A stretch of DNA of 64,000 bases from a bacterium (GCA_025360745.1 JANYBP010000043.1:10455-74454); one strand, 5' to 3'; shown: positions 12,163-50,765, counted from the first letter of the stretch. Program-made: numbers and translations. The notes: generated by a model not told the origin, from the letters alone.

Positions 12163-12939
12163 TCAATGACATGGGCCAACGTCTTGCGCTGAACAACCCC
12201 CGGTTATGAGTTCCGAGAATTCTGCCCCGGGCCAGAATGCCCGTTCGGTATAAGCCCCTCCTTCTCCGACAACTTGAAGGAGATCTACCCACGAATTTCC
12301 GATCTCAAGCACCTTCACCTTTGTGTCCTGCCAGTTTGCAAGAACCGTTTGGCGCCCCGGACCTGTAGCGCCCTTGGCATATCCCCGAATCGAATCACCA
12401 AGATTATAACTCTTCGCGCTGCCAATTGTCGTATGAACTCCCGCGTAGCCGTCGTATCCGGTCCATTGGGACTGGAACTGCCAGGAACATGTCACAAGAA
12501 AAGTCCTGCAACACGAATGCCTTGCTTTGACCCAGATTCGTGTTTCAGTATCACACAAATAGTTCCTGTAAAAAGGCAACGTTGTGCATGTCACAAATGC
12601 AGCGGCCGAACTACTCTCGCGAGGTCCAGAAGCCCATGCTCGTTTGCTAACCCCCCGATTATTGTCGCAGTCTGACTGCCCCCAAGACTTCCATTCTAAC
12701 AACCCGAGGGGATCCAACATATCTATTGTTCGATTGCGGACAAAAACATACAACGTTGGCGGCGGCGGACTCTTCGGAACCCCTCTGCGAATACCCACGG
12801 AATCGGTTGCATGCCGTTCATCTCCCAACGGATCTCTATTGAGCCATCTTCCCTCGTCCGGATGGTAATACGCTAGGGCCTTAACAACCAAACTACTTAA
12901 AATCAAACAACTCAAAAGAAAATACCGTATGCTTTTCAT
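12163..12939 (-). CDS. Secreted mini-RHS-tail protein: signal peptide plus RHS core-end/DPxGL motif plus novel Cys/Trp-rich C-terminal (toxin-like) domain
   Basis: MKSIRYFLLSCLILSSLVVKALA signal peptide, then YYHPDEGRWLNRDPLGDE ... TLYVFVRNRTIDMLDPLGL. This matches the RHS repeat-associated core terminal consensus (YYDPxxGRWxxxDPxG ... LYxYVxNNPxxxxDPxGL). No YD repeats anywhere. About 170-aa C-terminal domain of unknown family. Confidence 0.6.
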   Translation of the reverse strand: MKSIRYFLLSCLILSSLVVKALAYYHPDEGRWLNRDPLGDERHATDSVGIRRGVPKSPPPPTLYVFVRNRTIDMLDPLGLLEWKSWGQSDCDNNRGVSKRAWASGPRESSSAAAFVTCTTLPFYRNYLCDTETRIWVKARHSCCRTFLVTCSWQFQSQWTGYDGYAGVHTTIGSAKSYNLGDSIRGYAKGATGPGRQTVLANWQDTKVKVLEIGNSWVDLLQVVGEGGAYTERAFWPGAEFSELITGGCSAQDVGPCH

Positions 12940-16503: not shown

Positions 16504-17843
16504 GACCGGCGGGCTCCGGCCGCGGACGGCGCGGGAAGGTGCAGGTTGGAAGGTGGAGGTTGGAGGGTGGAAGGTGGAGGGTGGAGGGTGGAAGGTGGAG
16601 GGTGGAGGGTGGAAGACGAATCGGTTCCAGCAGTACTCGGGGACGGCGCGGCGATGCGCACGGCATAGGGGAGCAGAACGGCGCGACGATGCACGGAGAG
16701 GGAACTGCTCACCGCCAGGCGGCGGGCGGCGCCCGCGCCTTCACGCCAGGTCGCGCCCACCGACAATTCGCATGCGCCCGGCGTCGCGCTGTCCGGAACG
16801 ACCAGCGGCACTTCCATAACCTGCGCCCACATGTCCGCCCCCTCCGAAAGCACATTATCCGCCTGCGCCAGCATGCGGCCACGCTGGCGCAGGTGGATGA
16901 ATCCGACCAGAGCGGAGGACTCCGCCTCCGCGGGCACGGACCAGTAACACCGCAGCAGCAGGCGTTCGCCTGGCGCGACGGGACCCTCCGGCGCGCCGAT
17001 TCCCAGCAGCGTGACGCCGCGATCGAAGGCCGCCAGCGGCGCTTCGGCGCGGGCGATCAATTCCGGCACGGTCACAAAGGTGTAACCGCGCGCCTTAAGC
17101 GCCGCCAGCACCTGTTCCAGAACCTTGACCACCACGGCGCGGTTGAATCCCAACTGGGTATCGTGTCCATCGTGCAGCAAAAGAATGGCGCCCGAACTCA
17201 CCCGCCGCAGCATGTAATCCGCCATGACTTCCGGCGGATCGTTATGCCAATCGTAGGCATGCACCGAGACGCCGACATTGATCTGGTTTTCGGCCCGGCA
17301 CAGTCCCGCCAAACCACGATAGCGGCGGTCGGCGGCGCTGACGCCAACGGCCTTGGCGCCCGCCTCCTCATCCGGCCCGAAAATGCCGAAGGGATCGCGA
17401 AATAACACCGGACGCACACCCGTCACGGCGGCGATGGCGTCGGCGCCGTGACGGATCTGGTCGCGCCGTTCCGCATACGAAATCCGGTCGAAGCGCGGAT
17501 GGTCGTAGGAGTGGTTGCCGATCGCATGGCCGGCCTGCAACATACGCCGCACCGTGTCCGGACTGCGTTCGACATTGGTGCCGACGAGGAAAAAAGTCGC
17601 CCGCACCGACTCGCGGTCGAGAACGTCGAGCACCTGCGAGGTGTAGGGTTCATTCGGACCATCATCGAAGGTAAGCGCCACCACGCGCCCCGCAACCGGC
17701 ACATAACTTACAAGATCGCCCGCTTGAGGCCTGAAGGGCAGCCGTTCCGGTCCGCGGCATCCCGCCAGCGCAAAGACAGCGATAAAAACGAGCACGGAGG
17801 CACAAAGGGCTTTAATAGCGCATCGCACAACTTTCATGCGCAC
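16500..17843 (-). CDS. Polysaccharide deacetylase (NodB/CE4) lipoprotein with Pro-rich repeat tail
   Basis: Lipobox LAGC. NodB motifs TFDDGP...HSYDHP. C-terminal (STLHPPP)n tail encoded by a GGTGGA-type tandem repeat. Confidence 0.85.
   Translation of the reverse strand: MRMKVVRCAIKALCASVLVFIAVFALAGCRGPERLPFRPQAGDLVSYVPVAGRVVALTFDDGPNEPYTSQVLDVLDRESVRATFFLVGTNVERSPDTVRRMLQAGHAIGNHSYDHPRFDRISYAERRDQIRHGADAIAAVTGVRPVLFRDPFGIFGPDEEAGAKAVGVSAADRRYRGLAGLCRAENQINVGVSVHAYDWHNDPPEVMADYMLRRVSSGAILLLHDGHDTQLGFNRAVVVKVLEQVLAALKARGYTFVTVPELIARAEAPLAAFDRGVTLLGIGAPEGPVAPGERLLLRCYWSVPAEAESSALVGFIHLRQRGRMLAQADNVLSEGADMWAQVMEVPLVVPDSATPGACELSVGATWREGAGAARRLAVSSSLSVHRRAVLLPYAVRIAAPSPSTAGTDSSSTLHPPPSTLHPPPSTLQPPPSNLHLPAPSAAGARRS
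16541..16620. repeat. Tandem GGTGGA/GGGTGGA-type repeat (coding, Pro-rich tail); a dispersed second copy of the motif lies at 47150-47200
   Basis: ttggaaggtggaggttggagggtggaaggtggagggtggagggtggaaggtggagggtggagggtggaag seen directly in the sequence. Confidence 0.8.
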
Positions 17844-28500: not shown

Positions 28501-31500
28501 TCAGACGCTTTTCTCCCCGACGGCGAGGCGGGGAAGTTTCAGGCGCGGGGAATGGCGGTGGTATTCCTGGATGCTGCACACTTCCATGCGTCCGGCCTGG
28601 CGCATGCATTCGAGCCCGCCCAGGGCGTAGCGCCAGCCGTGGATCGTGGTCGTGATCGGAATGCCGCGGATCACCGCGTGCGATCGCATGCGCACCTCGT
28701 CCATGCGCGGGGTGGCGCCGCTGGACGGGGTGTTCACGATCCACTGAATCTGCTTCTCCTCGATCAAATCGATCACGTTCGGACGGCCGTCGGAAATGCG
28801 GAACACCGCCTGGGTCTTGATGCCGTTGTTGCGCAGCAGCGTGCTGGTGCCGGCGGTCGCAAAAATGCCGTACCCGAGTTTGGTCAGCCGTTGCGCGAGC
28901 GGAATTACCGCCTGCTTGTCTTCTTCGCGAATGCTCAGGAAAACATTGCCGGAGAGCGGCAGCGGGTTGCCGGCGGCCACCTGGCTTTTGAGAAAGGCCA
29001 TTTCGGCGGAACTGTCTATGCCCATGACCTCGCCGGTGGACTTCATCTCCGGACTCAGCACCACATCGGCGCCGGGGAAGCGGGCGAAGGGGAACACGGC
29101 CTCCTTGACCGAGTAGTGGCGCGGATGCGCCTCGTTGGTAAAGCCCAAATCCCTCAGTTTGTGGCCTGCCATCACGAGCGCCGCCAGTTTGGCCAGCGGC
29201 ACCCCGATCGCCTTGCTCACAAAGGGCACGGTCCGCGAGGCGCGGGGGTTCACCTCGAGCACATAAACCTCGCCGTCCTTGATGGCGTATTGCACATTCA
29301 TCAATCCGCAGACCTGGAGCTCTTGGGCCATCGCCAGCGTCATACGCCGGATCTCTTTTTTGACATCTTCGGTCAACGTCGGCGACGGAATCGAACAGGC
29401 GCTGTCGCCGGAATGAATGCCGGCCAGTTCGACGTGCTCCATAATGGCGCCGATCACCGAAGTCTCGCCGTCGGAAATACAGTCCACATCCACCTCGACG
29501 GCATTCTCCAGATAGCGGTCAACCAGCACTGGACGGTCATCGGAGACCAGCACCGCCTCCGCCATGTAGCGGCGCAGCATTTCGACATTGTACACAATCA
29601 CCATGGCGCGCCCGCCCAGCACGAACGATGGCCGCATCAGAACCGGATAGCCGATTTTCCCGGCAATCGCCTCAGCCTGGATGGCGTTCGTGGCGATGCC
29701 GTTGTCCGGCTGGCGCAGCCCCAGGCGGCGCAGCATGAGTTGGAAAAGGTTGCGGTCCTCGGCGACCTCGATGTTGGAGGGCGATGTGCCGATGATGTGA
29801 ACGCCGTTGGCCTCCAGACCTTTCGCCAGCTTGAGCGGCGTCTGCCCGCCGAACTGCACAATCACCCCTTCGCACTGTTCGCGGCGGTAGATGCTGAGCA
29901 CATCTTCCAGCGTCAGCGGCTCGAAGTACAGGCGGTCGCTGGTGTCGTAGTCGGTGCTGACCGTTTCAGGGTTGCTGTTGACCATGATGGTCTCGAACCC
30001 AGCATCGTGCAGCGCAAAGGCGGCATGCACGCAGCAATAGTCGAATTCGATCCCCTGCCCGATCCGGTTCGGTCCGGCGCCCAGAATCATGATTTTCCTG
30101 CCGGCGCTCTTCCTTACCTCGTCGAGGCTGCCGTAACTCGAATAATAGTACGGCGTCAGGGCGGCGAACTCGGCCGCACAGGTGTCAACCAGTCCGTACA
30201 CCGGCAGCAGTCCCGTCTTTTCGCGCGCCGCGCGCACCGCGCTTTCCTCTGCGTTCAGCAGCCACGCGATCTGGCGGTCGGAATAGCCGAATTGCTTGGC
30301 CTGCCGGAAAAGCGGCGCATCGCGCACCAGCCCTTCAAGCGAACCGGCGCCGCGGATTTCCTCCTCGTAGGCGGCCAACTCCTCGAATTGGCGCAGGAAC
30401 CAGGGGTCGATTTTGGTCAAGCCAAACAGTTTTTCCACCGTCCAGCCGCGCCGCAAGGCAGCGCGCACCTGAAACAAACGCTCTGAATTAGGCCGTTTAA
30501 GTTCAGCCTCCAATTGCTGGTCGGTCAGCGCTTCAGAGCCGGCATCCTTGCCATCGGCGCCGAATCCGAAACGTCCGGTTTCGAGCGAACGGCAGGCTTT
30601 TTGCAGCGAATGCTTGAAAGTCTTACCGATGCTCATGGCCTCGCCCACGGACTTCATCTGCGTGCCGAGCGTGGTGTCGATGCCGGGAAACTTCTCGAAG
30701 GTAAAGCGTGGCATTTTGACGACCACGTAATCGATCGTCGGTTCGAAGCAGGCCGGCGTTTCGCGCGTGATGTCGTTGCGCAACTCGTCCAGGGTGTATC
30801 CGATGGCGAGTTTGGCGGCTATTTTGGCGATCGGGAAGCCGGTGGCCTTGGAGGCCAGCGCGCTGGATCGCGAAACGCGCGGGTTCATCTCGACGATCAC
30901 CATGCGCCCGTTGGCGGGATCGATCGCCCACTGTACGTTCGATCCGCCGGTATCGACGCCGATTTCGCGCATCACCGCCAGCGAACTGTCGCGCATGCGC
31001 TGATATTCGCGGTCGGTGAGTGTCTGCGCCGGCGCCACCGTGATGCTGTCGCCGGTATGCACCCCCATGGGATCCACGTTTTCGATCGAACACACGATCA
31101 CGCAGTTGTCCTTGCGGTCGCGCATGACCTCGAGTTCGAATTCCTTCCAGCCCAGCACCGATTCCTCGATCAGAATCTCGGAAGTCGGGCTGTAAAAAAT
31201 GCCGCGCTGGCCGATCTCGTCGAAATCGGCCTCGTTGTAGGCGATCCCGCCGCCGGTGCCGCCGAGGGTGAAACCCGGACGGATGATCAACGGATAGCGC
31301 CCGATCGTATCGCGCACCAGGCGCGCCTCTTCGATGGTGTGCGCCACGCCGCTGACCGGCACTTCGAGGCCGATCTTGATCATGGCCTGTTTGAACAGTT
31401 GCCGGTCCTCGGCCTTACGGATCGCCTCGGCGCTGGCGCCGATCATTTCCACGCCGTAACGCTGGAGGATGCCCTTGTCCCAGAGTTCGATCGCCAGGTT

Positions 31501-31788
31501 GAGGGCGGTCTGACCGCCCAGCGTCGGCAGCAGCGCGTCGGGACGTTCGCGGCGAATGATCTCGCGCAGGATGTCGCAGGTCAGCGGTTCGATGTAGGTG
31601 CGGTCGGCGAACTCCGGATCGGTCATGATCGTGGCCGGATTGCTGTTGACCAGCACCACCTCATAGCCCTCTTCGCGCAGGGCCTTGCAGGCCTGCACGC
31701 CGGAGTAGTCGAACTCGCAGGCCTGCCCGATCACGATCGGGCCCGAGCCGATCAGCATGACTTTCTTTATATCTGTACGTTTTGGCAT
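28501..31788 (-). CDS. carB: Carbamoyl-phosphate synthase large subunit
   Basis: [30 protein letters not shown]... canonical CarB N-terminus. Duplicated ATP-grasp halves. About 1095 aa. Confidence 0.95.
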
Positions 31789-31797
31789 TTTAATAAA

Positions 31798-31826
31798 CGA
31801 TGAACGATGAATGATGAACGATGAAG
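31798..31826. repeat. Left arm of inverted repeat, (CGATGAA)x4, bracketing the four-helix-bundle gene
   Basis: cgatgaacgatgaatgatgaacgatgaag. Its reverse complement lies at 32215-32242. Confidence 0.75.
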
Positions 31827-31845
31827 AAACTAACGAAAGACGATT

Positions 31846-32220
31846 TCATTGCTGTTTCCTTTTTTTTGCGGTAATTACGGAAGCGGTGAAGATTGCTATG
31901 AGTTCTTCCGTTTCGTCCAACAGCCCTTGCATCTCATCTGACAGAACGGTTTTACTGCCGACCAGCAGTTCCAACCAATATACAGTCTCATCCAACTCCT
32001 GCAGACCACCCTCCATCTTGCTTATGAACTCAGCCGTGGAACGCGCTCGGGACGCTTCGCGATGGTGCGCACCAACCGACGTTCCGCTTCTCAGCACTTG
32101 CTTTCCAAGAACCTGGGCCACGGACGTTTTCGCTAAAGAACAATACATTCGGATAATCCGCAGTGAATATTCCTTCAGCCTCTCTTTCAAATCCCAAGGT
32201 TTCTGTTTTTCCGCATTCAT
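31846..32220 (-). CDS. Four-helix-bundle protein (23S rRNA intervening-sequence protein family)
   Basis: EYSLRIIRMYCSLAK...QVLRSGTSVGAHHREASRARSTAEFISKMEGGLQELDETVYWLELL is typical of the family. Confidence 0.8.
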   Translation of the reverse strand: MNAEKQKPWDLKERLKEYSLRIIRMYCSLAKTSVAQVLGKQVLRSGTSVGAHHREASRARSTAEFISKMEGGLQELDETVYWLELLVGSKTVLSDEMQGLLDETEELIAIFTASVITAKKRKQQ

Positions 32221-32242
32221 CGTTCATCATTCATCGCTCATC
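32215..32242. repeat. Right arm of inverted repeat, (TTCATCG)n, overlapping the start codon of the four-helix-bundle gene
   Basis: cattcatcgttcatcattcatcgctcatc. About 21 contiguous complementary bases with the left arm. Confidence 0.75.
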
Positions 32243-32329
32243 ACGTTGGCGGAATAATGCGCGATGCGGGGAAAAAACGCAAACGAATTGCCTGAGCGTA
32301 CGGATATAATGCCGCGATGAAATGGCCGT

Positions 32330-32542
32330 TACACCGCGACTTCAGCGTGTTGGATTCTGGTTCCGAAGTGCGCATCGACTTCAGGCCGTGCGTCAAGATA
32401 GTCGCGGATGGCGCCACGGATGTTCGCCAAGGCTTCTTCGCGTGTTGCGCCTTGTGAGCAACACCCAGGCAAGGCGTCTCACCAAACGGCAAAACCTTCG
32501 TCGGATTCAACCAGTGTGACGTTGTAGCGTTCGGCATTCATG
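32330..32542 (-). pseudogene. hicB: HicB-family (UPF0150) antitoxin-like gene interrupted by an in-frame TGA
   Basis: My minus-strand translation: MNAERYNVTLVESDEGFAVW-(TGA)-DALPGCCSQGATREEALANIRGAIRDYLDARPEVDAHFGTRIQHAEVAV*. The -PGC-SQG-T-EEAL-N- pattern is HicB-like. Not in the ORF track because of the stop. No hicA partner is visible. Confidence 0.4.
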
Positions 32543-32645
32543 GCGATAAGAAAGCCAGAATGTAGTCGAAAAGTCAAGTAGCGGCGGAATGCCGGGTATC
32601 CGCACCGTACACAGCAAGTTCAAATTCCTGTTGCCTGCCACTCAT

Positions 32646-35760
<3,115 letters not shown>

Positions 35761-43645: not shown

Positions 43646-43661
43646 GGGGCGTTCTCCAAAA

Positions 43662-43735
43662 GGGTGCAGGGTTCAGGGTTCAGGGTTCAGTGTGCAGGGT
43701 TCAGTGTGCAGGGTTCGGGGTTCAGGGTTCGGGAA
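43662..43735. repeat. Heptanucleotide microsatellite, (GGGTTCA)n about 9-10 units with GTGTGCA variants
   Basis: cagggttcagggttcagggttcagtgtgcagggttcagtgtgcagggttcggggttcagggttcggg, immediately upstream of the VOC gene start. Confidence 0.85.
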
Positions 43736-46759: not shown

Positions 46760-47254
46760 ATGTTCTTCGGGTCCGACGGCCCCATGGAATGGATGATCGT
46801 TGCCCTGGCCGTGCTGATGCTCTTCGGCAGCCAGCGCCTGCCGGACATGATGCGCACCCTGGGTCGCCTGAGCGCCAAGCTTTACCGCGCCCGCGACGAG
46901 TTTCGCAAAGAATTTCAGAAAGCCATCGAACTGCCGGATGAATCGGAGGTCGGAGATCGGAGGCCAGAGGTCGGAGATCGGACATCGGAAGTCGGAAGTC
47001 AGCGGGCGGAGGTCGGAGAGCATCCCGATATGACATCCTGTCTACCTCAATCCAATTCTAAACTCCAACTTCCGGCATCTTCCATCCCGACGGCTGACGT
47101 TCAACATCAATCCTTCGAACTTTCGAATACCACCGCCGACCCATCACATTCCACCCTCCACCTTCCACCCTCCACCCTTTACCCTCCACCCGGCCCCGCT
47201 GACCTCAAACCTACGGCCACCGGACCAGGCCATACCTCGGAGTTCGAGGTATGA
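46760..47254 (+). CDS. tatA: Sec-independent translocase TatA/TatB-family protein with extended repeat-containing C-terminal tail
   Basis: MEWMIVALAVLMLFGSQRLPDMMRTLGRLSAKLYRARDEF is a TatA/B TM plus amphipathic helix signature. The tail has EVGDR-type repeats (46936-47010) and a STLHLPPSTLYPPP segment (47150-47200). Stop overlaps tatC start. Confidence 0.75.
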   Translation: MFFGSDGPMEWMIVALAVLMLFGSQRLPDMMRTLGRLSAKLYRARDEFRKEFQKAIELPDESEVGDRRPEVGDRTSEVGSQRAEVGEHPDMTSCLPQSNSKLQLPASSIPTADVQHQSFELSNTTADPSHSTLHLPPSTLYPPPGPADLKPTATGPGHTSEFEV

Positions 47255-48051
47255 GCATGCCGGATGCATACAATGGTCGTTTGCCGGAAGTGCCGGAGGC
47301 TCCCGTAGAGGGCGGCCCCTACAAACCTTTTTTGGGACATCTGGAGGACCTGCGCCGCATGCTCCTGCGCAGCGCCACGATCGTCGCGCTTTTGTTTTGC
47401 GCGGCCATGGCTTTTGCGCCGCAACTCTTTGCATTCTTAAAATGGCCCCTGCGCCGGGCGGCGATCGATCCTGATCGTTTCCTGCTCGCCTTCACCGTGA
47501 CGGGCGGTATTCAACTATGGATGCAGATGGCTTTTGGGGCGGCGATTGTGGCCAGCGCGCCACTTTTGCTGGCGCTCTGGACGGCCTATCTACTGCCCGC
47601 GCTGAGAAAGCGCGAGCGGCAGTTGCTGGTTCGCGGATTGTTGCTCGGCGCCCTGCTTTTTCTTGCCGGCGCCGCGCTCGCCTTCCTGGTTTTGCTGCCA
47701 CCCACCCTGCGCGTGATGCTGGATATTTACGCCTGGCTGGGCATACCGGTGACTTTCTGGACGGTGGACGATTATGCCGGCTTCTGCCTGAAACTGATGC
47801 TGGCCTTCGGCATCACTTTCGAGATGCCAGTTTTATTGCTGGCACTGGGTTATCTCGGCATCGTCACCGCCGCCCAATTGGGGCGCTTCTGGCGGCATGC
47901 CATCGTGATCGCGCTGATCGTATCCATGGTCGTCACGCCCACCACTGACCCCGTCAGCCAACTCGTGCTGGCCGCCCCGCTGGTGCTGCTCTATGCGCTC
48001 AGCATCCTGCTGCTCTGGCGGCACGAACGACGACAGGCGGCGGGGATGTGA
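47251..48051 (+). CDS. tatC: Twin-arginine translocase subunit TatC
   Basis: Six TM helices. LEDLRRMLLRS TatC N-terminal motif. Confidence 0.9.
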   Translation: MSMPDAYNGRLPEVPEAPVEGGPYKPFLGHLEDLRRMLLRSATIVALLFCAAMAFAPQLFAFLKWPLRRAAIDPDRFLLAFTVTGGIQLWMQMAFGAAIVASAPLLLALWTAYLLPALRKRERQLLVRGLLLGALLFLAGAALAFLVLLPPTLRVMLDIYAWLGIPVTFWTVDDYAGFCLKLMLAFGITFEMPVLLLALGYLGIVTAAQLGRFWRHAIVIALIVSMVVTPTTDPVSQLVLAAPLVLLYALSILLLWRHERRQAAGM

Positions 48052-50594: not shown

Positions 50595-50765
50595 CAGAAG
50601 CCAGAATTCAGAATTCAGAATGAATTCCCTGTTTTCTGGAGGGTCGGGCTTGCAACTCTGCGAAGCAGCGCTTCGCTGCGTAGCACGAGCCTTCTGACTC
50701 CTGAATTCTGCCTTCTGGATTCTGCCTTCTGGATTCTGGCTTCTGGATTCTGGCTTCTGGAACTG
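50595..50765. promoter_or_regulatory. Highly structured intra-operon spacer: long imperfect inverted repeat built from (CTTCTGGATTCTGG)n tandem units around a perfect GCGAAGC-AGC-GCTTCGC hairpin
   Basis: ccagaattcagaattcagaa ... gcgaagcagcgcttcgc ... ctgccttctggattctgccttctggattctggcttctggattctggcttctgg read directly. Confidence 0.55.

Follow-up and report, generated by a model that had tools for sequence, protein, structure and literature searches.

The window, a 64,000-nt stretch of bacterial DNA (GCA_025360745.1, JANYBP010000043.1:10455-74454), contains a 444-nt unit in the spacer between pyrG and carB. This unit, which we call a cassette, consists of a gene for a small four-helix-bundle protein of the 23S rRNA intervening sequence (IVS) type and of two inverted arrays of tandem heptads that bracket the gene. 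We refer to the gene as the IVP gene, after its Pfam family. The cassette, carB and pyrG are on the minus strand, as are purF and a gltD-like gene further out. The features of the locus, numbered from the first nucleotide of the window, are as follows.

28501..31788, minus strand: carB, directly downstream of the cassette; the end of the cassette replaces its native Shine-Dalgarno region
31799..31825, minus strand: 3′ arm, reading TTCATCG TTCATCA TTCATCG TTCATC in the sense direction; pyrimidine-rich; pairs with the 5′ arm in the minimum-free-energy (MFE) and centroid structures
31826..31845, minus strand: spacer of 20 nt between the stop codon and the 3′ arm
31846..32220, minus strand: four-helix-bundle protein gene (PF05635 23S_rRNA_IVP / TIGR02436), 124 aa
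32216..32242, minus strand: 5′ arm, reading GATGAGC GATGAAT GATGAAC GATGAA in the sense direction; purine-rich; its last 5 nt include the ATG of the open reading frame (ORF)
31799..32242, minus strand: whole cassette, 444 nt from outer edge to outer edge of the arms
32330..32545, minus strand: HicB-like antitoxin pseudogene with an in-frame TGA (FAVW*DALPGC); outside the cassette, filling the rest of the spacer
32646..34265, minus strand: pyrG, the upstream host gene (Pfam CTP_synth_N, E 8.7e-118)

An inverted-repeat search recovered the arms at 31799-31825 (GATGAACGATGAATGATGAACGATGAA) and 32216-32242 (TTCATCGTTCATCATTCATCGCTCATC), each 27 nt long, 96% complementary and 390 nt apart. Both are period-7 arrays according to Tandem Repeats Finder, with 4.3 and 3.9 copies. 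These results agree with an earlier annotation made from the DNA alone (hereafter the sequence-only reading), which had described inverted CGATGAA-type arms around a 124-aa ORF between carB and pyrG, the right arm extending over the start codon. The ATG (32220-32218) does lie inside the right arm, and the arms are as that reading gave them, apart from a trivial one-base shift at the start of the right one. The left arm ends 10 nt short of the carB ATG (31788).

On the plus strand, the arms pair at 26 of 27 positions, and the sole mismatch is A/C. On the minus strand, which is the sense of the IVP gene, this mismatch becomes a G·U pair, so the sense RNA can pair at 27/27 positions. For a chance test we used the 14-mer CGATGAACGATGAA, which at up to two mismatches has seven matches in the window, six of them inside the two arms; 0.61 were expected, and none of 100 shuffles reached seven. 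The sequence-only reading had also proposed looking for the arm heptads elsewhere, especially in rRNA operons. This search gave nothing: the CGATGAA unit occurs nowhere in the 64-kb window outside the arms, and the window contains no rRNA gene.

The sequence-only reading also called for RNA folding, and the arms pair stably in every fold run, namely in the MFE and centroid structures of three nested segments of 481, 586 and 894 nt (z = -3.55 for the 481-nt fold and z = -3.10 for the 586-nt fold). Both kinds of structure thus contain the terminal stem by which rRNA IVSs are recognized, here 27 bp long and looping the cassette out. Two larger pairings were considered and rejected. An outer helix of 31767-31790 with 32286-32309 (24 nt, 79% complementary), which would cover the carB AUG, appears in one fold only and is probably due to chance, given that outer flanks in the gene family are no better matched than cross-paired ones (p = 0.65) and that the score of the window is average. 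A helix between the pyrG stop and the carB start competes with the much stronger inner stem, and is not present in the 894-nt fold.

No direct repeat that could be a target-site duplication is found at the outer edges of the window copy (flanks ...CCAACGT and GTTTATT...), and there is no transposase domain inside the 444-nt unit, so it is neither an insertion sequence nor a miniature inverted-repeat transposable element despite its inverted arms. The cassette contains no sigma-70 promoter-like or intrinsic-terminator-like site, the consensus search covering these two types only. Rfam gave only noise near the cassette (E >= 1.3), and nothing in the whole window, rRNA included, reached a gathering threshold.

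The bracket is not peculiar to the window. Locus L004 has an 86% identical gene in an unrelated context, with its own inverted purine-rich heptads. Five kb away in the same locus is a second, distant family member that matches the Avd model weakly and is bracketed by (CAGAGGT)n. The gene seen in the window occurs with its own arms in further contexts as well (L004b and L177-L180). We surveyed the family more broadly with a protein-pattern scan, taking one genome per species, which yielded 80 loci (54-68% identity), 73 of them usable. They come from about eight phyla (Acidobacteriota, Planctomycetota, Verrucomicrobiota, Chloroflexota, Cyanobacteria, Deltaproteobacteria, Bacteroidota and others). 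The loci were chosen by protein alone, so the choice was blind to the flanks.

The best inverted-repeat score between the 135-nt flanks had a median of 41 for matched flanks, 23 for flanks paired across loci, and 15 for other positions in the same loci or for shuffles. Matched flanks scored above the 95th percentile of the positional control at 66 of the 73 loci (90%), which we therefore call bracketed. A period of seven is the best lag in 68/73 upstream and 69/73 downstream flanks, and strong arrays have a purine fraction of 0.78 on the upstream side and 0.24 on the downstream side. Both arms have the same unit at 16 of 20 loci, where 4.2 would be expected and the maximum in 2000 permutations was 10. 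Similarly, the duplex energy is lower for matched than for cross-locus arms (p = 2e-8). An orthologous pair, L008 and L010, shows compensatory change, with one A-U pair replaced by C-G and one G-C by G·U. Whether other copies of the gene carry the repeat had been set beforehand as a point on which the sequence-only reading could fail; 66 of these 73 other members do carry it. The bracket is thus a property of the gene family, although it is not universal, and what is constant across the family is the tandem-heptad arms, not the CGATGAA sequence.

The geometry of the family resembles that of the window copy. The helix has a median length of 30 nt, the element measures 451 nt from outer edge to outer edge (median; interquartile range (IQR) 432-482), and the distance from stop codon to arm is 10 nt (median; IQR 5-26). 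The ATG lies within the best helix in 37 of 65 loci, and complementarity ends where the arms end. The neighbouring genes are mostly co-oriented with the IVP gene in the 73-locus set (52/69 upstream and 59/70 downstream), with gaps of a few tens of nucleotides. At two loci (L004 6375-6450 and L178 543-620) a signal peptide of the next called ORF takes its hydrophobic core from the pyrimidine-rich 3′ arm (e.g. MNPFCFIVLRSVFIVLFALPCAWA); this is either exaptation or a gene-calling artefact.

The heptads differ greatly in sequence between loci, and match within a locus. This is evident on plasmids, where a tblastn search found 31 records with homologues, mostly cyanobacterial. We inspected 14 of them, and most of the cyanobacterial copies show heptads. 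Arm units include the following.

Nostoc C052 and Dolichospermum: AATTCGT
N. flagelliforme: AATTCAA
N. punctiforme (L173): GTCGGAG
Gloeocapsa: TTTTAGA
Planktothrix: CCCCAAT / CGTAAAT
Euhalothece: GTGACCA, 13 copies
Treponema: GGAGAGC
Chlorohelix: GGATGAA

Unrelated heptads can accompany proteins that are 68-76% identical (GTCGGAG versus AATTCGT; TTTTAGA versus CCCCAAT versus GATTGCA), and the identity matrix rules out a strict coupling of protein to heptad sequence. Even a single arm can mix GATGAA, GCGGAA and GCAGAA units. Plasmid cassettes are co-oriented inside operons, lying between csx2 and cas1, DrmD and PglX, helicase and methylase, hsdS and hsdR, or fabH and a peptidase gene. Several (L168-L171, L185 and L186) are wedged into defence operons, where the flanking pairs are helicase and N6-methylase, csx2 and cas1, DUF1156 and HEPN, DrmD and PglX, cas2 and cas1, and hsdS and hsdR. 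A statistical association of 23S_rRNA_IVP with CRISPR loci has been reported (PMC10910872), and insertion of cassettes into defence operons may explain it.

Heptad arrays also occur apart from the gene. In 429 kb of IVP loci we counted 72 strict arrays, of which 50 are no more than 200 nt from an IVP gene; the window has four, and 568 kb of unrelated carB loci have none. The 239-kb plasmid pNFSY06 of N. flagelliforme (NZ_CP024791.1, L189-L193) has 39 heptad arrays, whereas its shuffles have none. All five IVP genes on this plasmid are bracketed, each by a different unit (AGCAGGG, AAAATTC, AATTCGC, AATTCGT and ATCTGCN), and four of the five units recur elsewhere on the plasmid, either in hairpins that lack an ORF and have loops of 130-140 nt or in solitary arrays. 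Identical 35-nt arms are present at 154946 and 155927 around different cargo. The ORF-less hairpins are not deletion derivatives of cassettes, as they have only the arms in common with them and their loops are unrelated.

The presence of the cassette in the window is the result of an insertion. The pyrG-carB spacer of the window is 857 nt long and is made up of the HicB-like pseudogene and the 444-nt cassette. Empty sites were sought by a CarB protein search and contig look-ups. Two relatives have the order purF-pyrG-carB with spacers of 18 nt (record P0122, CarB 82%) and 34 nt (L176, CarB 81%), and a third has a pyrG remnant 21 nt from carB (L175, CarB 82%). In a relative with 94% identical CarB (L174), carB follows another upstream gene across a 139-nt spacer with AGGAG 7 nt before the ATG, and has neither cassette nor heptads. 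Because the 81-82% relatives have spacers of 18-34 nt and the 94% relative lacks the cassette, the 444-nt unit is an insertion in an operon spacer. The sequence-only reading had suggested a mobile or RNA-processed cassette and a comparison of this spacer in relatives. The comparison supports the cassette, in that the short spacers have neither gene nor repeat, and homologues in unrelated contexts have arms of their own. No empty site came from scanning metagenomes with the CarB N-terminus, as all the carB loci recovered were at most 75% identical; these loci were reused as the repeat-free control mentioned above.

The base composition of the cassette also differs from its surroundings, with a G+C content of 0.43-0.55 compared with 0.58-0.68 in the flanks and a window mean of 0.62. 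Among named organisms, Kiritimatiellae have the nearest homologues of CarB and IVP. In another relative, carB is likewise preceded at 58 nt by an IVP gene, 91% identical, which there lies behind a run of toxin-antitoxin genes. Together with the HicB-like pseudogene of the window (Pfam HicB_lk_antitox, E 6.7e-5, which is below the cut-off and was obtained after replacing the stop codon), this makes the site look like an insertion hot spot. The pyrG stop codon lies within a heptad-like stretch, CGATGAATGA / AACGATGAATGA (32642-32653), which is a 12-nt perfect complement to 31803-31814 of the 3′ arm. It may be what is left of an earlier 5′ arm, split by the HicB module. Three Logan short-read contigs with an identical cassette (L001-L003) all end inside the 3′ heptad arm, which suggests an assembly break, possibly from heterogeneity in repeat copy number.

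The assignment of the gene to the 23S IVS protein family, made in the sequence-only reading, is borne out by matches above the cut-offs to PF05635 (E 1.5e-14, 54.5 bits against a cut-off of 33.8) and TIGR02436 (E 4.4e-20, 71.9 bits against 24). The protein is also related to a chain of solved structure, 2rld_A, over residues 7-119 (E 2.7e-20 with a single sequence and 9.6e-31 with a profile). The ratio of non-synonymous to synonymous substitution rates is 0.08-0.11 relative to the cassettes in L004 and L178, with synonymous sites near saturation, which points to strong purifying selection on the protein. By homology, the protein is predicted to be a pentameric, nucleic-acid-binding toroid related to Avd. 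It does not match the Avd model NF033474, and it is not an Avd of the diversity-generating retroelements (DGRs), with no reverse transcriptase or template/variable repeat near the cassette; the genes around it encode CarB, PyrG, PurF, a GltD-like protein and an NTP-transferase/GHMP kinase. PADLOC models gave no match to the window protein, and scans of IMG/VR for phage carriage found no relative. IVS or "S23p" proteins were still termed functionally uncharacterised in 2024.

Among known systems, the cassette closely resembles the ORF-containing 23S rRNA IVSs of Coxiella burnetii, Leptospira and Brucella, which have a member of the same protein family in their loop and are horizontally acquired. 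In the 23S IVS of Coxiella, the terminal stem measures 28 bp, and GACAGAT heptamers, three to four in tandem and variable in number between strains, run up to the S23p ATG (PMC4990558). RNase III cuts the IVS in mid-stem, and the excised RNA is labile (PMC4990558). The S23p protein of Coxiella is apparently not made. The likeness is closer than the sequence-only reading had claimed, as it extends to the 28-bp stem, the heptamers up to the ATG and the RNase III cut (PMC4990558). The lengths agree (444 nt in the window; 444 nt predicted and 428 nt mapped in Coxiella), as do the terminal stems of roughly 27-28 bp with one imperfection and the tandem heptamers reaching the start codon. However, the window copy lies in a protein-coding spacer and not in helix 9, 25 or 45 of the 23S rRNA (or in 16S rRNA). 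Its ORF is strongly constrained, whereas that of Coxiella is decaying, and RNase III processing is in its case a proposal. The window cassette may work like an rRNA IVS, but it is not one, since these are defined by their place in an rRNA gene.

The arms also resemble previously described intergenic heptad repeats. Xanthomonas campestris has 186 GGGAATC arrays, most with four units and many in convergent pairs in operon spacers, which were read as G-quadruplex motifs (PMC4692102). Some 70-75 convergent pairs form hairpins, and entry 15 of Table A overlaps the start codon of XCC0516 by 17 nt (PMC4692102). XCC0516 encodes the crystallised pentameric S23p homologue. Other examples are GGGGAYT in Nostoc (PMC4692102), TAACTGA in Beggiatoaceae (PMC4679880) and the short tandemly repeated repetitive (STRR) sequences of cyanobacteria. 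As in the cassette, these are tandem 7-nt units, typically four, in operon-internal spacers near start codons. However, they have been treated as G-quadruplex or regulatory sequences, with the four-helix-bundle gene unmentioned (PMC4692102, PMC4679880), while the arrays of the window have a different unit and bracket such a gene.

Two further systems can be compared. Repetitive extragenic palindromes (REPs) and their associated RAYT genes offer an analogy only, namely a small gene between inverted copies of a short repeat that is also dispersed without the gene, as seen on pNFSY06. On that plasmid four of five bracketing units are dispersed, and the CGATGAA unit of the window is confined to its arms within these 64 kb. 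RAYT is, however, an HUH/Y1 transposase with a known DNA mechanism, while the IVP four-helix bundle has no known catalytic activity, and REPs are single palindromes instead of tandem heptads. The Avd protein of DGRs has a homologous four-helix-bundle fold, is pentameric and binds nucleic acid, but the reverse transcriptase and template/variable repeat that accompany it are missing here.

On balance, we lean towards the view that the 444-nt unit is a copy of a widespread, horizontally spreading loop-out cassette of the IVS type that sits in an mRNA spacer, acts in RNA and is probably cut by RNase III. Apparently lacking a promoter of its own, the cassette would be transcribed together with the host genes; the tight packing of cassettes in operons with co-oriented neighbours speaks for the reading as a whole. 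In the transcript, the purine-rich 5′ arm, which carries the ATG, would pair with the pyrimidine-rich 3′ arm to form a 27-bp stem that loops the gene out and keeps the initiation region of the ORF closed. Being a perfect duplex of RNA and longer than two helical turns, the stem would be cut by RNase III in the manner of the rRNA-borne members. Cleavage would free the cassette RNA and part the upstream message from the carB message.

Several points weigh against this proposal. The bracket is missing at 7 of the 73 surveyed loci. It is also missing in the only match for IVP relatives in the phage collection, the record MT835815.1 (L194 2480-2845; unverified, phage-like, from human faeces), whose IVP homologue has no flanking heptad arrays. 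The analysis establishes the bracket and its stability, the family membership, the insertion, a geometry kept across the family with arms that vary between loci and match within them, and purifying selection on the protein; co-transcription, RNA pairing in vivo, RNase III cleavage and an effect on translation are what we infer, so the sequence-only reading is supported in part. Pairing of the sense RNA is only weakly favoured over a strand-neutral role in DNA, the signals being marginal: G·U outnumbers A·C on the sense strand by 51:32 in the family (p = 0.048), and sense duplexes appear more stable than antisense ones by a Wilcoxon test (p = 0.052) while a sign test is not significant. Template switching between inverted repeats during replication could keep the arms alike without any selection on RNA. 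A transcript cut just upstream of carB could be harmful to the host. Given that the S23p of Coxiella is apparently not made while the ORF of the window is under strong constraint, translation must occur despite the stem. Finally, a plain stem explains neither the need for tandem heptads nor the solitary arrays.

Because the stem leaves the period of seven and the solitary arrays unexplained, the idea of a pentameric protein that reads heptads stays alive. The arrays could be recognition sites of the encoded toroid, which would engage a tandem run of four to five heptads in nucleic acid, whether single- or double-stranded. On this view, dispersed arrays and hairpins would form a family with the bracketed gene as its "master" copy, by analogy with REPs and RAYT genes, and the protein would act in self-regulation or in the spread and maintenance of arrays. 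We hold this idea tentatively, and it can coexist with an RNA stem. It is consistent with the retained tandem periodicity, which a plain stem does not need, with arm lengths that cluster at 28-35 nt, or four to five units, in the family, on pNFSY06 and in the Xanthomonas table, and with the pentameric state of homologues (five chains in 2rld; a pentamer as described for Xcc0516). On pNFSY06 each of the five genes has a unit of its own that can recur in ORF-less hairpins and solitary arrays, and strict arrays are concentrated in IVP loci and lacking in the control. The homologue Avd, furthermore, binds nucleic acid and reverse transcriptase. However, sequence-specific recognition would have to evolve very fast if proteins 68-76% identical have unrelated heptads, and the mixture of GATGAA, GCGGAA and GCAGAA in one arm is hard to reconcile with it. 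The binding is putative, and CGATGAA occurs nowhere else in the 64 kb of the window. Somewhat more doubtful is the idea that the stem remains uncleaved and is a translational or operon-coupling device, hiding the IVP start until an upstream ribosome or a helicase opens it and bringing the end of the upstream gene near the carB start, so that the operon would stay coupled in spite of the insertion. Upstream stop codons 3-30 nt before the IVP ATG and a following ATG close after the 3′ arm would suit such a device, as would the position of the ATG within the helix, here and at 37/65 loci, and AAGGATG-type units that place AAGGA 6 nt before the next ATG. Selection on the protein also implies that it is translated. 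Yet RNase III would be expected to cut a perfect 27-bp RNA duplex in nearly all bacteria, the upstream neighbour in the window is a pseudogene and not pyrG, and across the family the candidate outer helix does not rise above chance.

It is unlikely, in our estimate, that the arms act in DNA as terminal inverted repeats, or as a cruciform or hairpin used in insertion, excision or recombination, with the RNA stem as a by-product. The presence or absence of the cassette among relatives and its many contexts are consistent with such a role, as is the fact that the inverted repeat stops exactly at the arm ends. The identical 35-nt arms around different cargo about 1 kb apart on pNFSY06 point the same way, and perfect mosaic matches, such as 34/34 in L019, fit the copying of one arm from the other; the excess of G·U on the sense strand, being marginal, does little to oppose it. 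However, the unit has no transposase, integrase or relaxase, and the window copy has no target-site duplication. Terminal repeats read by an enzyme usually keep their sequence; in the cassettes the sequence varies freely while geometry and period alone are retained. The rRNA-borne relatives are demonstrably processed as RNA. Integron attC sites, retrons and terminators were also considered and rejected: there is no integrase or reverse transcriptase, and the gene has repeats at its 5′ as well as its 3′ side. Finally, two unrelated microsatellites of a repeat-rich genome might happen to flank a small gene, and several other heptad arrays of the window are indeed not beside the IVP gene. The probability of this is negligible, given that none of the 100 shuffles reached the observed count, that the arrays are reverse-complementary in register, and that 90% of 73 independent loci are bracketed relative to positional controls. 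Coincidence is thus excluded, and the bracket is confirmed as real.

Two results appear to be new, namely the presence of a heptad bracket across the gene family and its connection with heptanucleotide repeats. We found no published link between the four-helix-bundle gene and heptad repeats in full-text literature, where subscription papers are thinly covered, so that a prior description is possible; the repeat sequences themselves, when searched for there, led to nothing more. The bracket connects three poorly understood things: the IVS/S23p proteins, the ORF-bearing rRNA IVSs, and the intergenic heptad repeats, which have repeatedly been reported and never explained. If it is the signature of one class of element, then rRNA IVSs would be just one special case, the first to have been noticed. 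The many genes called "four helix bundle protein" in biosynthetic, CRISPR-Cas and restriction operons would be insertions and not members of these operons, and heptad hairpins in operon spacers would likely be processing or regulatory sites left by such elements. More speculatively, IVP proteins might be dedicated partners of heptanucleotide arrays, including the cyanobacterial STRR type, the GGGAATC arrays of Xanthomonas and the arrays of the window. Such a family would have the bracketed gene as its autonomous form and ORF-less hairpins and solitary arrays as non-autonomous ones, and the toroid would bind about five tandem heptads and generate, spread or read them. Such a partnership, if true, would account for what the IVS proteins do and for the surplus of 7-nt repeats that has long been noted in bacterial genomes. 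Cultured organisms carry such cassettes, among them Nostoc punctiforme PCC 73102 (pNPUN01, 162595-163050), Xanthomonas campestris (XCC0516) and Gloeocapsa PCC 7428 (pGLO7428.03, 12242-12610), so the question is open to direct test.

The other heptad features of the window are the following.

50602-50621 and 50691-50760, plus strand: ORF-less heptad hairpin, in which 3 and 10 copies of an NNCAGAA unit enclose a loop of about 70 nt; fold z = -4.76
16534-16613: solitary array, (GGAGGGT/GGAAGGT) x 11, lying about 30 nt ahead of a family-2 glycosyltransferase gene on the minus strand (start 16503); no inverted partner nearby
43661-43730: solitary array, (AGGGTTC) x 10, about 15 nt upstream of a minus-strand start codon (43646); no inverted partner nearby
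46943-47018 and 47150-47191: arrays of (TCGGAGG) x 11 and (TCCACCC) x 6, upstream of tatC (47251-48051)

The hairpin at 50602-50760 has an ABC permease gene on one side and a periplasmic binding-protein gene on the other, and its unit is of a class also found in the arms of some IVP cassettes. Pairing of the two arrays upstream of tatC was considered and rejected, as the fold is no better than that of shuffles (z = -0.02). A unit of these arrays, read as GTCGGAG, also makes up the arms of the N. punctiforme cassette.

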